Source of the DNA: an uncultured bacterium
GTDB taxonomy: Bacteria > Hydrogenedentota > Hydrogenedentia > Hydrogenedentales > JAEUWI01
Direction of reading: 5' to 3'
Assembly: GCA_963977445.1 (NCBI GenBank)
Contig: CAXBPH010000114.1
Coordinates: 1-20,465 of the forward strand
Length of the DNA stretch: 20,465 nt
Shown piece after piece: positions 5,699 through 18,234 of the stretch (position 1 is its first letter; every line of letters begins with the position of its first letter). The position numbers and the translations under genes were made by a program. The notes under the pieces are model-generated. The model was not told where the DNA came from, did not search any database, and was given only the letters and a program-made list of their open reading frames with translations.

Positions 5699-8600
5699 TT
5701 AATCCCCCAGATCGAAGGCCAGGGCCATCTGCTTGATAGATTTGATGTCCATCTTGCCCGTTCCCAATATCGGTATTTCGTCAATTTGATAAAAGGCAGT
5801 TGCCTTCGGAATCCATAAGTTGGGCATGGAGGACGTCTTCATGGCGGACAGCAATTTTTCCAGTTCCTCGTCATTCAGGGTGTGGAGCACAATGAGTCGC
5901 TCCCCTTTTTGCGTGTCGGGAACGCCCGCGACAGCAAGTCGCTGCTCGGTGAGATCAAGCAGGCCATGGAGGATTTCTTCCACCCGCGTATGGGGCACCA
6001 TTTCGCCCGCGACCTTACTGAAACGGGCCAGCCGGTCCGTAATCGTGATAAAGCCATCCCCATCGATGTTCGCAATGTCCCCCGTTTCATACCAGCCATC
6101 CCGAAGTACCTTGGCAGTTTTCTCTGGCTGTCCCAGGTAGCCCTGCATGATGTTGGGGCCTCGGGCAAGCAACAGGCCAGATTCTCCCGCAGCAACCTCT
6201 TCACCCGACGCCGTATCCACCACGCGCACTTCCACGCCGGGGATGGGTCGACCAATCGTACCGTGCTTGGTGCCGGGGCTATAAAAGCCGGGTGAAACAC
6301 AGTCGGTAATGTTGGCCGACACGACAGGGGCACATTCCGTCGTCCCATAGCCCTCCAGGGGCTCCATGCCGAATTTCTCCTTGAAGGCATTACGTACCCG
6401 CGGCGCAAGTTTTTCAGCACCGCACACGATGAAGGCCAGACTCGACAGTTGTTCCGGTGTACATCGGCGGATGAAGCCCTGCATGAAGGTGGAGGTGCCT
6501 ATCATGATGGTTCCCTGATACGTATTGATAAGCTTTCCGATTATTTTAGGCTCCAGGGGATTGGCATGGTAAATGCCGCGGATTCCATGGATGAGCGGCA
6601 TCCAAAGGGTTGCGGTGAAGCCAAAAGAATGAAAAAAGGGTAGGAAGCCCACAATGCAGCTGTTGCGGTCGTTCGGAAAGGCTTCCAGGGTGCCATCAAT
6701 ATTGGTGATGATGTTGCGATGGCTAAGCATGACGCCTTTGGGCTCGCCTTCGCTACCACTGGAAAAAACCACCGTCGCCAGATCATCGGCACTGCGTTGG
6801 GGGGAGCCGAGAACGCGCTCAATCAGGGAGACAGGACATGCCACCGCAAGAAACATGGCGATAAGACGATCCAGGAAAGTTACGCTGTCCCGGATATCCT
6901 CGAGGAAGATGGTTTCGCCCGGAACTTCGAGGGGCAGACGTTCCACGAGCTTCTTCGAGGTCAGCACCTGGGTTACGTTGCACTGGCGGGCACAGGAAGC
7001 AATCACATCGCTGCTGGCCGTGTAATTCAGGTTGATGGGCACGCGTCCCATCAGTTGAAGGGCAACGTTGGTCAGGGATCCGCCCAGGGAGGGAGGGAGC
7101 AATACACCCACCATCTGTTGCTGATCGAGACGTTGCTGAAACTTTCGCGCAAATACCAGACTGCCGACGAGGGTCTTGAAATAGCTCAGTTTTCCCGTCA
7201 ATGTGTCGGCAATGGCCATTTTAAAGGGATTGCGCCGTGCCATGCGAACGAAGCCACGGTGGAGCAGCTGGACACGGAGGGGACGCTCCGTGTGGACTTC
7301 CCGGCCCAGAAGATGCAACGTTTTCGTAATCGATTCCATCGTGCTGTCCACCGGGAGCGGGGGACCAAAACGTATATCGATGGGGTAGGGCAATTGCTTG
7401 GGGCGTCGCCATTGAACGCGATTCTCGATAATTACATAGAGTGATTGCCACATGCGCGTGATATAAAACGGCACCACCGGTATGTCGAGACCCCGGGTGA
7501 TGACCCCAACATTGTTTTCCCAGGCTACGGGGCAGCCTTCCGGGGTGACCTGGCGCTCATTGTTGATGCAGACAACATGGCCCAACGCAAGGCACTTTCG
7601 GACCTGCTTGGCCACCTGGGCCTGTTCCGTTTCCGTAGCGTGCTCCGGTATGGGTATCACGTGCAGCAGGCGCGCCAGGCGGCCCATAATCGGGCGCCGG
7701 AAGACCCCATCACCCATTACAAAATGGATTTCCCTGTCCGTTGCGCTGAATATGGCAAGACAGTCGATGAAAGAAATGTGACTGCCCACGAGCAGGGCTG
7801 CCCCCGATTCTGGCAACAATTCCCGGCCGTGCACGCGAATACGAACCCAGGTATTGGAAAGAATCCACAACACTGCCCGAAGACATAGATGGGGCAAGCG
7901 GAAGGTGATGTAGATACCCATTCCAAGTGAAAAGGCCGCCGTCAGCAGGTAAACCTGGTAGGTGCTCAGGCCCGCCGTCCCCAGCGCGATAAACAACAGA
8001 GAAGCCACCGCCATACCCACAAAGGTGAGCATATTCGTTGTCGCTATAATGCCGCCGACTGTGCCCTTGGGTGCCCGGTGTTGTACCGATGCGGCCAGGG
8101 GAACGTCGAAGGCGCCCGCGAAAAAGCCCAACCCGAAGGTGCTGAACAGCAGAAAATAGAAATAGGTCCCCGGGTTGGTCGTCGGTGTATTTTCGACAAG
8201 TATCGGAATCGACATAAAGGGACGGAAAGCTTCGAAAGGTATGGCCATCAGGGCACCAAAGAACGCCATGCCCAGCGCGCCAATCGGGATGATGCCCAAT
8301 TCAATCTTGTTGCGGGAGAGGAAGCCCGCGGCCAGTGCACCCAGACCGATTCCCATAACTACCGCACCGATGAGTGCGCTCTGATAGGCCTCGCTAAGCT
8401 GGAGCGTGTCCCCTGCGAATTTGACGATATTGGCGCGCACCAGGGTGCCCACGAACCAGAAGTAGATGTATCCAAGCACCACATTGAAGAGTACGCGGTC
8501 GCGCCAGATGATACCGAAGTCCCGCCCCATACCTTTCCAGGGAAGGAGTGGGTTCATGGGGATGGGAAGGTGGGGATTGGCCGCCGGGGGACGGGTAATC

Positions 8601-9253
8601 CAAAACGCGGTTGCGATGCCCAAACCAGAAAGAGCGACCAGGTAAAAGGATGTGCGGTAGAGTTCCCCCGCATAGGCATGGTGTATCTTTCCAGCCGCCA
8701 GCACCCCGAGTATGATGGCAGCAATCGTACCCATCTGAATGATACCGTTGGCCCACGAGAGGCGCCGTTCAGGGAGTATCTCAGGCAGAATGCCATACTT
8801 CGCGGGAGCAAATAGGGCGCTTTGGGTCGCCATCAGGAAAAGCACGGCCCAAATGAAAAGCGGCGATCCGGATAAGAAGGCAAGACCGCCGATGATCATG
8901 ATGACCACTTCCATGATCTTGGTGGCGATGGCGAGGACGCCTTTGCTGTAACGGTCGGCGATGGCCCCGAAGAGACAGGGGAAAATGATGAAGGGCAGGG
9001 AAAAAAGTAAGGTAGATATACCCTGGACATAGTCGTAAGGTGCCAGAGAGAATGTCTTCCCCAACAGACTTACGTCTACAACACCCGCGCCCGTACCCGA
9101 CGTCAGTGTCGCCACAAGGCTGTAGATGATAAGCCATTGATAGACGTTGTCGTTGAATGCCCCCTGAAATTGGGTCACCACCAGTGCCCAGAACCCACGG
9201 GGTTTGAAATCCGCCTCGTGCAGCGTGGTAGCAGTCTGCTCTCGATGTGTCAT
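5699..9253 (-). CDS. aas: Aas-type fusion: MFS (LplT-like) lysophospholipid transporter + PlsC-like acyltransferase + acyl-ACP synthetase (AMP-binding)
   Basis: TQFQGAFNDN, ADRYSK and QSALFAPAKYGILPE (LplT-like MFS); SHISFID (HX4D); FSSGSEGEPKGVMLSH, EGYGTTE, WYETGD, RFSKVAGEMV and GTGKMD (adenylation domain). Confidence 0.93.
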   Translation of the reverse strand: MTHREQTATTLHEADFKPRGFWALVVTQFQGAFNDNVYQWLIIYSLVATLTSGTGAGVVDVSLLGKTFSLAPYDYVQGISTLLFSLPFIIFPCLFGAIADRYSKGVLAIATKIMEVVIMIIGGLAFLSGSPLFIWAVLFLMATQSALFAPAKYGILPEILPERRLSWANGIIQMGTIAAIILGVLAAGKIHHAYAGELYRTSFYLVALSGLGIATAFWITRPPAANPHLPIPMNPLLPWKGMGRDFGIIWRDRVLFNVVLGYIYFWFVGTLVRANIVKFAGDTLQLSEAYQSALIGAVVMGIGLGALAAGFLSRNKIELGIIPIGALGMAFFGALMAIPFEAFRPFMSIPILVENTPTTNPGTYFYFLLFSTFGLGFFAGAFDVPLAASVQHRAPKGTVGGIIATTNMLTFVGMAVASLLFIALGTAGLSTYQVYLLTAAFSLGMGIYITFRLPHLCLRAVLWILSNTWVRIRVHGRELLPESGAALLVGSHISFIDCLAIFSATDREIHFVMGDGVFRRPIMGRLARLLHVIPIPEHATETEQAQVAKQVRKCLALGHVVCINNERQVTPEGCPVAWENNVGVITRGLDIPVVPFYITRMWQSLYVIIENRVQWRRPKQLPYPIDIRFGPPLPVDSTMESITKTLHLLGREVHTERPLRVQLLHRGFVRMARRNPFKMAIADTLTGKLSYFKTLVGSLVFARKFQQRLDQQQMVGVLLPPSLGGSLTNVALQLMGRVPINLNYTASSDVIASCARQCNVTQVLTSKKLVERLPLEVPGETIFLEDIRDSVTFLDRLIAMFLAVACPVSLIERVLGSPQRSADDLATVVFSSGSEGEPKGVMLSHRNIITNIDGTLEAFPNDRNSCIVGFLPFFHSFGFTATLWMPLIHGIRGIYHANPLEPKIIGKLINTYQGTIMIGTSTFMQGFIRRCTPEQLSSLAFIVCGAEKLAPRVRNAFKEKFGMEPLEGYGTTECAPVVSANITDCVSPGFYSPGTKHGTIGRPIPGVEVRVVDTASGEEVAAGESGLLLARGPNIMQGYLGQPEKTAKVLRDGWYETGDIANIDGDGFITITDRLARFSKVAGEMVPHTRVEEILHGLLDLTEQRLAVAGVPDTQKGERLIVLHTLNDEELEKLLSAMKTSSMPNLWIPKATAFYQIDEIPILGTGKMDIKSIKQMALAFDLGD

Positions 9254-16048: not shown

Positions 16049-17026
16049 TCAGGGCCACTCTGGTTTGGCTTCTCGGGTCATCAGTCCTTCGATTGCTTCC
16101 CGGGCGGACACATTCTCAAACAAGACCTGGTAGGTCGCTTCCGCCAGCGGCAGGTCTACCCCCATCCGTTTTGAAAGCGCATGGACCGACTGGGTCGTGC
16201 GAATACCTTCCGCAACCATGTGGCTACCCTGAATGACTTCATCCAGCGTCTTGCCCCGGGCGATGGCTTCGCCAACGGCCCGGTTGCGTGAATGTTTGCT
16301 CGTGCAGGTCGTAATCAGGTCACCCATACCACTCAGGCCCGCAAAGGTCAGGGGATTGGCTCCACAGGCGACACCCAGCCGCGCCATTTCGGCCAGACCT
16401 CGGGTAATTAACGCCGACTTGGCATTGTCGCCCAACCCGAATCCGTCACAGACGCCCGCCGCGATGGCGACGACATTTTTCAGTGAGCCACCAAGTTCCA
16501 CACCGATGATATCGGGGCTGGTGTACACCCGAAATGTCCCGCAGAAAAATGCATCCTGAACCGCGTGACGGGCCGCCCCATCGGAACTGGCCGCAACCAC
16601 CGATGCAGGTAGACCACGCCCAACTTCTTCCGCGTGGCTCGGTCCCGAGAGGGAAACGACGGGACTGCCCGGAGCCAACAATGCGATCACTTCACTCATA
16701 CGCAGCAAGGTATCGTTTTCAATGCCCTTGGCCACACTTACCCGAATCGGATTGCCCCGAAAGATAAACTGAGGGACGACCATGCGCATGGCGTGGGACG
16801 GGACGGCGTAGATCACCATGTCCACGTCGGCGTCGATGTTTCGGTCGATTTCGACCGATTCAGGAATGAGCACCCCGGGGAGATAGGTTGTGCTTTCCCG
16901 CGTTTCGCGCAGGCCCCTGGACTCATCTTCACTGCGACACCATAGCCGTACGTTGTGGCCGTTCAACGCCAGGACCCGGGTGATGGCCAATCCCCAGCTG
17001 CCGCCTCCAATTACCTGTATTCGCAT
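16049..17026 (-). CDS. gpsA: NAD(P)H-dependent glycerol-3-phosphate dehydrogenase
   Basis: MRIQVIGGGSWG (Rossmann fold), AVPSH, AKGIE, SGPSHAEEV, GVELGGSLKNVVAIAAG, GLSGMGDLITTC.S.HSRN and VAEG. True start is ATG 17026. Confidence 0.96.
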   Translation of the reverse strand: MRIQVIGGGSWGLAITRVLALNGHNVRLWCRSEDESRGLRETRESTTYLPGVLIPESVEIDRNIDADVDMVIYAVPSHAMRMVVPQFIFRGNPIRVSVAKGIENDTLLRMSEVIALLAPGSPVVSLSGPSHAEEVGRGLPASVVAASSDGAARHAVQDAFFCGTFRVYTSPDIIGVELGGSLKNVVAIAAGVCDGFGLGDNAKSALITRGLAEMARLGVACGANPLTFAGLSGMGDLITTCTSKHSRNRAVGEAIARGKTLDEVIQGSHMVAEGIRTTQSVHALSKRMGVDLPLAEATYQVLFENVSAREAIEGLMTREAKPEWP

Positions 17027-17078
17027 CGTTGAAAAAGTATCCAAGGGTTTCGGTCTTGCGGTTAGGGTGTGGATCTGT

Positions 17079-17108
17079 ACCCTAGCAAAGTGGCGTCGTG
17101 TGGAGCAA
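17079..17108 (-). promoter_or_regulatory. Candidate gpsA promoter, downstream of the sRNA copy 1 terminator
   Basis: Minus strand TTGCTC-N18-TAGGGT with a TGc extended -10. Confidence 0.35.
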
Positions 17109-17118
17109 TGGCAGGCAC

Positions 17119-17242
17119 AAAAAAGGCCCGCCGAGGGGGGCACCTCGACGGGCTGCGGCAGGTAGGCTCTTCGTTTGGCAGGGGGCATGCCAAATTGAGG
17201 GAGTTGCTGACTCCGAAGAGTCAATCAACTGAGTGAGCCTAC
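17119..17242 (-). ncRNA. Putative structured small RNA, copy 1 (C-rich-loop sibling sRNA; family not recognised)
   Basis: P1 GUAGGCUC/GAGCCUAC. P2 AGUUG-AU-UGACUC(UUCG)GAGUCA-G-CAACU. P3 UUUGGCA(UGCCCCC)UGCCAAA. Terminator GCCCGUCGAGG(UGCCCC)CCUCGGCGGGC-C-UUUUUU. TATACT lies 7 nt upstream of the 5' G. Confidence 0.8.
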
Positions 17243-17249
17243 AATTAGG

Positions 17250-17288
17250 AGTATAACCGAAATGTGCGACGAAAGTGAAACAAAAAAA
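17250..17288 (-). promoter_or_regulatory. Promoter of sRNA copy 1
   Basis: -10 TATACT (17250-17255), -35-like TTCACT (17274-17279) and an upstream T tract. Confidence 0.6.
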
Positions 17289-17543
17289 CGAAGCTTTTCT
17301 TTCGATTCGGTAGCTTGTGAGCCCGCGCAGGCCTACGATAAAAGACATGATTGACCACGAATACTACCGCGGCGGCCGCTCCCGACAATCGCGTGAGATG
17401 ATGTGTTGGATCGCAGGAACCGGCTACGGAAGGTTTTTTCAGGTAGGGCCCGAAGATCTGGGAAACATAATCTTGAACGGGGGGAGAAGGGGCGGTATCG
17501 TAGTGCTGGAACGCATGCCGCCTTACCGCAGGATTCTCTCGTG

Positions 17544-17670
17544 AAAATGAAGCGCCCGCCGAGGGGGGCACCTCGACGGGCTGCGGCAGGTAGGCTCATC
17601 ATTTGGCAGGGGGCATGCCAAATTGAGGGAGCTGATGACTCCGAAGAGTCAATCAACTGTGCGAGCCTAC
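17544..17670 (-). ncRNA. Putative structured small RNA, copy 2 (C-rich-loop sibling sRNA; family not recognised)
   Basis: Same fold as copy 1, with 6 substitutions over 119 nt (17554-17672 vs 17126-17244). The terminator hairpin is followed by GCUUCAUUUU. TATACT lies 7 nt upstream of the 5' G. Confidence 0.8.
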
Positions 17671-17677
17671 AAACAGA

Positions 17678-17716
17678 AGTATAGCGTAAATGTATGAAGA
17701 AAGCATAACGAAAAAA
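17678..17716 (-). promoter_or_regulatory. Promoter of sRNA copy 2
   Basis: ATGCTT-N17-TATACT (-10 at 17678-17683) with an upstream T tract; aligns without gaps to the copy 1 promoter but is more diverged than the RNA body. Confidence 0.6.
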
Positions 17717-17856
17717 TGGAATTATTATGAATTAATTCCGATTATGGTACGTTTTTCTCCAAAATGGCGAATGTAACTAGAGAAAAACCATTAAATACAT
17801 TAGAATACAGTTTCTGACTACCCTACGCGACGACACACAGAAAGGAAGAGTTTACA

Positions 17857-18234
17857 ATGGCGCGAGTGCTGGTAATTGATGATCACTACGCAATGCGTAA
17901 AACAATCCGGGAAGTCCTGGAAGATGCCGGCCATGAGGTCCTGGAGGCCCCCGACGGACAGTCCGGAATCGATATGCGTGGTCGCTACGAAGTCGATCTC
18001 GTTATTACCGATATATTCATGCCCGAGAAAGAAGGCATGTCAACCATCCGTGATATGTGCGCCCGCTTTCCCGGCTCCCGGATTATCGCCATGTCGGGGG
18101 GCAATGATGATTTGACGGCCCCCGAGGGCTTCATCCAGCTCGCCGAGCGTTTTGGAGCCTGTGCAACCATTACGAAACCCTTTAAGATAGATGACTTCCT
18201 CGCGGTGGTGACCCAGGTGTTGAGCGGGGAATGA
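17857..18234 (+). CDS. Stand-alone response regulator receiver (CheY-like) protein
   Basis: RVLVIDDH, DLVITDIFMPEKEG, IIAMSGG and TKPF. AAGGAAG RBS. Confidence 0.92.
   Translation: MARVLVIDDHYAMRKTIREVLEDAGHEVLEAPDGQSGIDMRGRYEVDLVITDIFMPEKEGMSTIRDMCARFPGSRIIAMSGGNDDLTAPEGFIQLAERFGACATITKPFKIDDFLAVVTQVLSGE

Follow-up and report, generated by a model that had tools for sequence, protein, structure and literature searches.

A tandem pair of candidate sibling small RNAs with C-rich loops in one genus of Hydrogenedentota

The window analyzed here is the whole 20,465-nt stretch of contig CAXBPH010000114.1 (contig C114 of the source genome), which comes from an uncultured bacterium of Hydrogenedentota whose genome assembly comprises 7.1 Mb in 464 contigs at 56% G+C and is 94% complete. 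Hydrogenedentota is, to our knowledge, a candidate phylum without a cultured member. Between gpsA and a gene for a CheY-like response regulator, the minus strand of the window carries two closely similar sequences, copy A and copy B, that have the features of a tandem pair of small RNA (sRNA) genes. The pair appears to represent a regulatory RNA family that is new but of a well-known kind, namely sibling sRNAs with C-rich loops.

The repeated locus and its predicted RNAs

A repeat search identified 17126-17288 and 17554-17716 as direct repeats of 163 nt with 88% identity and a spacing of 428 nt. Pairwise alignment counts 6 substitutions between the copies in the 119-nt core, all of them located from the first paired G to the end of the terminator stem: two in junction J1/2, one in a bulge of helix P2, one that exchanges a U-A for a U-G pair in P2, and two in junction J3/1. 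The likeness extends ∼45 nt beyond the structured part on its upstream side and stops directly after the terminator stem. On the minus strand both copies adopt a common predicted fold, in which the closing stem P1 (GUAGGCUC/GAGCCUAC) encloses, in order, a P2 hairpin with a C(UUCG)G cap, the linker CUCCCUCA, which is predicted to be unpaired, and a P3 hairpin with the loop UGCCCCC, followed by a G+C-rich terminator with the loop UGCCCC. The fold z-scores are -5.3 and -5.6 on this strand, with none of 200 shuffles as stable, versus -3.1 and -3.5 on the plus strand. In both copies TATACT stands 7 nt 5′ of the first paired G, and a consensus scan found TTCACT-18-TATACT at copy A and a minus-strand terminator at each copy. 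The features of the pair and its two flanking genes are as follows.

17119..17244, minus strand: sRNA copy A, the downstream sibling, ∼125 nt, from the fold; 138.8 bits with covariance model R1 at 17118-17244; orthologues in 9/9 genus genomes
17235-17242 with 17161-17168, minus strand: P1 of copy A, from the fold, which further holds the P2 UUCG hairpin, linker, P3, terminator and U tail
17546..17672, minus strand: sRNA copy B, the upstream sibling, ∼125 nt, with the architecture of copy A, from the fold; 150.3 bits with R1 at 17546-17672
17250..17279, minus strand: promoter-like site of copy A (TTCACT, 18 nt, TATACT), a consensus match only
17250-17255, minus strand: -10 box of copy A, 7 nt upstream of the first paired G (17242), a distance fixed in the aligned copies
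17678..17683, minus strand: -10 box of copy B (TATACT), 7 nt upstream of the first paired G (17670)
17126..17153, minus strand: predicted intrinsic terminator of copy A (terminator scan), 11 pairs, loop GGUGCCCC in the region 17137-17142, tail CUUUUUUG
17554..17581, minus strand: predicted intrinsic terminator of copy B (terminator scan), loop 17565-17570, weaker tail GCUUCAUUUU
17196..17203 (A) and 17624-17631 (B), minus strand: linker CUCCCUCA, predicted single-stranded, anti-Shine-Dalgarno-like, invariant in 18/18 copies
17181..17187 (A) and 17609-17615 (B), minus strand: P3 hairpin loop UGCCCCC, with GCCCCCU invariant in 18/18 copies
16049-17026, minus strand: gpsA (Pfam), 93 nt downstream of copy A
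17857-18234, plus strand: receiver-only (CheY-like) response regulator (Pfam)

These results bear out most of a preliminary description made from the letters of the window, which had reported direct repeats with 6 substitutions in 119 nt, the minus-strand fold (closing stem, UUCG hairpin, UGCCCCC hairpin and UGCCCC terminator), TATACT at 7 nt before the first paired G of each copy, and the minus strand as the transcribed one, a choice that agrees with the G-U pairs, the T tails and the promoter-like site of copy A. Its further claim that the two RNAs are independently transcribed has partial support, in that the copies behave like separate units of the minus strand, with conservation limited to the -10 box, the body and the terminator. 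The consensus promoter scan found no sigma-70-like -35/-10 hexamer pair at copy B. Among the orthologues, the -10 box of the B copy is TATACT or TATAAT in 8/9 genomes, the exception being genome G004, which has CTACTGTAT at that place.

The upstream regions have features of their own. By eye, the aligned B-copy promoters (17684-17716 in the window and the corresponding regions of loci L002-L009) contain three ATAC(T)TTT-like units spaced 11-13 nt apart, the last of which overlaps the -10 box, and these units could be a binding site for a regulator. In the clade of genome G008 (L005-L009) another promoter precedes the A copy, TTTACA-N18-CATACT, whose spacer contains a C run, so that the siblings may be differently regulated. 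The spacer between the copies holds, at 17472-17495, a G-rich run on the plus strand (GAACGGGGGGAGAAGGGGCGG), C-rich on the strand of the RNAs; if transcribed from the plus strand, this run would be complementary to the C-rich loops, though the spacer as a whole is unconserved (27% identity).

Conservation, distribution and presence in RNA libraries

The source genome contains exactly two copies, as found both by blastn and with the covariance model. Building such a model and searching the genome and its relatives, a check that the preliminary description had proposed, yielded two syntenic copies in 9/9 genomes of the genus: the tandem pair recurs in all 8 other genomes, with the copies 120-369 nt apart, and the gene order is kept as a gene with helix-turn-helix (HTH) and receiver domains, gpsA, RNA A, RNA B and the CheY-like gene. 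The gpsA and CheY-like genes flank the pair in 9/9 loci, one of which is cut within the CheY-like gene, and one of the nine genomes is a single contig.

In an alignment of the 18 copies with their flanks, the conserved block extends from the -10 box to just past the T run. Mean pairwise identity across the nine genomes is 92.8% for the RNA body of copy A and 92.7% for that of copy B, versus 71% for the coding DNA of gpsA; it is 70% and 59% for the 60 nt upstream of copies B and A, respectively, 42% across the 90 nt that follow copy A, and 27% in the spacer that separates the copies. An independently transcribed sRNA gene would have a promoter and an intrinsic terminator of its own, a conserved non-coding body and a discrete transcript; observed here are a -10 box at a fixed distance except in the G004 B copy, conserved terminators and a non-coding body. 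A coding function is excluded by 1-4 nt insertions and deletions that change the length of J3/1 among orthologues and by the replacement of the only AUG, in the P3 loop, by AAG in 5/9 genomes.

The proposed helices are supported, if thinly. Among 20 distinct sequences, in an alignment fitted to the model, 99.3% of 768 cells are paired, versus 35-45% when the partners are slid, and 8 pairs show changes on both sides, a number reached by none of 500 shuffles. If only the 18 main copies are considered, compensatory change is seen at one pair (A-U to G-C via G-U), alongside U-G/U-A and U-G/C-G switches. The alignment contains 40 G-U cells, and the same helices pair in only 94.1% of cells on the opposite strand; these G-U cells point to the minus strand, in agreement with the T tails.

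Variation among the copies is unevenly distributed. The variable columns lie in J1/2, in P2, in J3/1, in two junction columns (50-51) before P3, at the first P3-loop base and at one terminator pair, whereas P1, the linker CUCCCUCA, the rest of P3, the loop GCCCCCU, the CCUGCCGCA stretch and the terminator loop do not vary in the 18 copies. The P2 loop occurs as UUCG, UCCG or CUCG. At the first P3-loop position four genomes have U and five have A, with both copies of a genome in agreement, and the terminator is invariant in 18/18 copies apart from one U/C position that remains paired (U-G or C-G). This distribution suggests a structural role for P2 and a functional core formed by the 3′ two-thirds. 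Tails and promoters distinguish the A orthologues from the B orthologues, which dates the duplication to before the genus. The copies of one genome are nevertheless more alike (A-B, 95.2%) than orthologues from different genomes (A-A 92.9%, B-B 92.5%), which, together with the variants common to both copies, indicates partial concerted evolution.

Beyond the genus, searches with model R1 over 15 genomes of the family, 133 of the order and 135 of the phylum returned no match except in genome G020 (31 bits). In these large searches 26-150 first-look candidates were scored per genome under strict filters, so that weak or distant relatives may have been missed. In 5 genomes from 3 other genera, the sequence upstream of gpsA likewise gave no match, the best hit (E 0.04) lying downstream of gpsA. 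A pattern scan of species-representative genomes gave 8 loci, 7 of them in Candidatus Hydrogenedentota/Hydrogenedentales; one of these 7, on OW818658.1, has coordinates that coincide with the G008 pair. A locus from the same scan in a metagenome-assembled genome (MAG) of Ardenticatenaceae had no match to the covariance model and was taken as chance. Of 53 loci from a pattern scan of metagenomes, the model confirms only 3 (4 copies). As far as the searches used can detect, the RNA appears to be restricted to the genus.

Two further sequences are of note. Genome G005, alone among the nine, has a third, shorter member at G005:C156:4597-4685 on the minus strand (L048:1501-1589; 48 bits). It lacks P2, has its own TATAAC box 7 nt upstream, carries compensatory changes in the P3 and terminator stems, and has the loops CUCCCCU and AUGCCCCCU. 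The 31-bit match in G020, from another family of the order, lies at G020:C31:10044-10142 on the minus strand (L049:1501-1599) and combines a closing stem with a hairpin whose C-rich loop spans 18 nt, a linker CCCCCUCGAC and a terminator loop UUUGCCCC; its fold z-score is -6.6. It could be distantly related or have arisen independently as an analogue.

The stretch is also represented in public sequencing runs, where 14 runs from 10 studies, 12 of them recorded as RNA, each contain a small share of it. Four metatranscriptome runs from four studies were aligned to the locus, in all cases as Logan contigs; the share of 0.04 in the other 10 runs was not counted as evidence of habitat. In all four runs the contigs were placed only on the RNA bodies. 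Run X1 gave 91 contigs, confined to 17122-17217 and 17553-17649, with a summed word depth of up to ∼67,000, and adapter sequence abuts the terminator-stem bases 17126 and 17553 and also 17636 and 17638. Contigs of 111 and 107 nt from run X5 cover 17551-17656 and continue 5 nt into the terminator tail, a 154-nt contig from X6 covers 17544-17671 and ends 2 nt beyond, beside the predicted 5′ end, and a 210-nt contig from X14 covers 17544-17646 and continues into unlike sequence. Beyond the terminator of copy B, 25 and 106 unlike letters follow in the contigs of X6 and X14, respectively. Since the contigs are 90-99% like the window, and X1 has the A-type loop variant at 17615, they stem from relatives; the flanks of relatives would not align, and for that reason the uncovered spacer and flanks were not used as evidence. 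The limitation of the contigs of four runs and four studies to the RNA bodies indicates that the RNA is very probably made, and that it is short.

In X1, the first 25-30 nt at the 5′ end of both copies lack contig cover (the contigs reach 17649 in copy B and 17217 in copy A). The abundant species may be a 5′-shortened form that starts from the 3′ strand of P2, or the pattern may be an effect of reverse transcription or library preparation.

Other neighbours of the pair by Pfam are a GH31 glycosidase and the HTH-receiver regulator. Elsewhere in the window, 5699-9253 on the minus strand encodes a protein of 1184 aa in which MFS, acyltransferase and AMP-binding domains are combined, in a neighbourhood that is lipid-related (fatty acid desaturase, polyprenyl synthase and gpsA).

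Known systems and possible modes of action

In gathering mode, Rfam 15 finds only a tRNA at 36-108 in the whole window. In E-value mode (E up to 10), the region 16950-17900 gives six rows, all far under the cut-offs and none of them for 6C, LhrC or RsaE; the scores include 15.7 and 12.9 bits for ar14 (cut-off 58.8), 15 for ar7 (60) and 21.9 for Rhizobiales-2 (40), a likeness that reflects the C-rich terminator loops only. The suggestion of the preliminary description that the family is undescribed is therefore upheld, in that no Rfam 15 family, 6C and ar14 included, is found at gathering score. Across the source genome, terminators with C5 loops occur at 26 sites, 9 of which are intergenic on our own map of open reading frames (ORFs), the copy B terminator among them. 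Six sites were folded, and these resemble ordinary gene terminators.

The comparison with published C-rich-loop sRNAs places the pair among known designs without identifying it with any of them. A close parallel is offered by LhrC1-5 of Listeria monocytogenes, which are multicopy siblings of ∼100 nt, partly in tandem, with redundant C-rich sites in a hairpin loop, in a single-stranded segment and in a terminator loop, all three of which can contact the Shine-Dalgarno (SD) region of lapB mRNA (PMC4132741). The motif here is GCCCCC or CUCCCUC rather than the UCCC of LhrC, there is no likeness in sequence or model, the closing stem creates a three-way junction, and the phylum is another. LhrC also binds Hfq and depends on LisRK (PMC4132741), whereas Hfq (PF17209) was not found in the source genome, which is 94% complete. 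A second parallel is sX13 of Xanthomonas, a highly expressed, Hfq-independent sRNA with apical C-rich loops whose targets have G-rich motifs near the start codon. It consists of three adjacent stem-loops in a single copy (PMC3771888), in contrast to the two copies and P1-closed junction described here. The G runs that mark sX13 targets are, at the starts of this genome, weakly (GGGG) or not (GGGGGC) enriched. The 6C RNA of Actinobacteria, which has two hairpins with C-rich loops, likewise uses such loops as direct binding sites, in G-C-rich pairing without chaperones (PMC6486639); it is conserved across its phylum and differs in architecture and lineage, whereas the present RNA occurs in one genus of Hydrogenedentota. 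The cuckoo RNAs of Alphaproteobacteria (with ar14 and CcsR; RF02344) share a repeated, anti-SD-like C-rich loop motif and tandem or multiple copies, and ar14 is one of the best Rfam likenesses below threshold, but they consist of 2-4 adjacent hairpins, all with the loop motif CCUCCUCCC, and form no multiloop (PMC4615179). That motif is absent here, where the loops are UGCCCCC and GUGCCCCCC and the fold is a multiloop, that is, the three-way junction.

The most likely reading, to which we give about even chances, is that the two sibling sRNAs act by Hfq-independent pairing of their C-rich elements with G-rich, SD-like sites on mRNAs. Each of the two minus-strand genes, with an apparent promoter of its own and an intrinsic terminator, would yield an RNA of ∼125 nt in which P1 holds the structural, UUCG-capped P2 and P3 in a three-way junction, with the terminator hairpin next to it. 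The linker, the P3 loop and the terminator loop, which read CUCCCUCA, (U/A)GCCCCCU and GUGCCCCCC, would be the three exposed C-rich elements. These redundant elements would pair, independently of Hfq, with G-rich SD-like mRNA sites, and pairing there would block translation initiation in the manner of LhrC, sX13, 6C and RsaE. Action in trans, the identity of the seed elements and the nature of the targets are all deduced rather than observed. That no Hfq was found fits the chaperone-independent, G-C-rich pairing known for 6C (PMC6486639) and sX13 (PMC3771888). CsrA is present in the source genome.

To examine start regions, we used a home-made set of 5033 ORFs of at least 120 aa, with starts picked partly by SD score, in an organism whose SDs are of the AAGGAG type. 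The linker complement GAGGGAG, which is SD-like, occurs in 41/4587 start windows versus 16 gene-internal and 18 antisense windows, an enrichment of 2.3-2.6×; GAGGGA clusters at -20 to -11, and the peak of AGGGG lies at -15 to -6. A mode like that of sX13, directed at SDs by a short seed, is plausible, but a long site of the GGGGGCA type is no general feature of start regions. One of the three best linker matches is the SD of a DUF4034/TPR gene (G000:C5:16690 in the source genome, L131), with an 11-nt match to the copy A linker, and its orthologues have an 8-nt match to their own linker in two of three genomes (G003 and G004, not G008). As the site is an SD, this match is weak evidence. A ranking of start regions by duplex energy with three segments of the RNA was dropped, since reversed-sequence controls scored alike.

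Several results count against the pairing mechanism or limit what can be built upon it. Because starts were chosen by SD score, the SD-like enrichment is partly circular. The loops themselves look depleted of partners at predicted starts: 8-mers complementary to the UGCCCCC loops occur there 1-5 times, where genome frequency predicts 5.4-9.7, and GGGGGC is found in 147/4587 start windows versus 212 gene-internal and 169 antisense ones. The preliminary description had looked to enrichment of GGGGGCA at start codons, which this crude run does not reveal. Matches of at least 9 nt to any exposed segment are not more frequent at starts (11-17) than inside genes (7-20), and two of the three best linker matches precede genes for which a search of 5 other genus genomes gave no close relative. 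Covariation is thin, with the one divergent copy of G005 accounting for 7 of the 8 compensatory pairs. In the 18 copies the sequences of stems P1 and P3 do not vary, despite room for compensatory change, which suggests constraints beyond those of a simple seed model. Finally, contigs cannot reveal strand, true ends or level, and RNA libraries can contain DNA.

Some of these observations would be accommodated if the RNA bound a protein, as a sponge or as a component of a ribonucleoprotein, with the (U/A)GCCCCC loops and the C-rich linker as repeated sites by which that protein is titrated or carried. The loop motif is both repeated and invariant, the invariance of P1, P3 and the CCUGCCGCA stretch exceeds the need of pairing seeds, the summed contig depth in X1 is very high, and loop-complementary sites are not enriched at starts. 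We nonetheless hold a protein-binding role to be unlikely: abundance is poorly gauged from contig depth, the locus is linked to no candidate protein, its neighbours being gpsA and the receiver-only response regulator, and CsrA, though present, has a known motif (GGA in loops) that the loops here lack. We also know of no bacterial sponge RNA with C-rich loops. A more pointed form, in which the RNA, rather than regulating by conventional seed pairing, would be a very abundant, genus-specific scaffold or decoy of a protein that reads the (U/A)GCCCCC loops, with the 3′ two-thirds constrained and the 5′ end possibly shortened, is quite unlikely; if true, it would be a C-rich-loop counterpart of the CsrB/RsmZ-type sponge in a phylum without known RNA biology. 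The lack of start-site enrichment for the loops would equally suit a sponge or decoy for other RNAs (G-rich sRNAs, tRNA fragments or leader RNAs) instead of a direct regulator of mRNAs, as the exposed C-rich elements are able to pair with any G-rich RNA. The genome, however, has no outstanding cluster of GGGGGCA, the best being 3 within 200 nt inside a gene, and the intergenic share of GGGGGCA (232/1570) equals that of the genome, so we regard such a decoy as improbable.

The position of copy A, 93 nt upstream of gpsA and on the same strand in 9/9 genomes, could also be explained by a cis-acting leader or attenuator that controls read-through into gpsA, and the continuation of the X6 and X14 contigs into 25 and 106 unlike letters beyond the terminator of copy B might be taken in its favour. 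Yet copy B has the same structure and precedes the promoter of copy A rather than a gene, the third G005 copy is located elsewhere, no alternative anti-terminator pairing was seen, conservation is only 42% in the 90 nt that separate copy A from gpsA, and gpsA occurs without the RNA in other genera; control of gpsA in cis is thus hardly credible. As for a non-functional repeat or an assembly duplication, nothing speaks for it but the repetition itself. A dispersed element of the repetitive extragenic palindromic (REP) or miniature inverted-repeat transposable element (MITE) kind was rejected on finding two copies in the source genome, two syntenic copies in each of the 8 relatives and one extra in G005, and both possibilities, which the preliminary description had named as fatal to the sRNA call, are in effect excluded by a fixed syntenic site in 9/9 genomes, the single-contig one included, at which A and B orthologues can be distinguished.

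Significance for Hydrogenedentota

A full-text literature search, judged by titles and the openings of abstracts, found no paper on small RNAs of Hydrogenedentota or Hydrogenedentes. The pair is a well-delimited, conserved candidate regulator for this phylum, present in RNA libraries, with a familiar plan and within one genus, and it is the first such candidate that we could find for Hydrogenedentota. In practical terms, covariance model R1 and its alignment A3 can serve the annotation of MAGs, and the RNA could be used as a marker transcript of the genus in metatranscriptomes. The pair is also an independent case of the recurring sibling sRNAs with several C-rich, anti-SD-like elements, in a lineage in which no Hfq was found, and such a further case in Hydrogenedentota supports the view that this design has arisen repeatedly.

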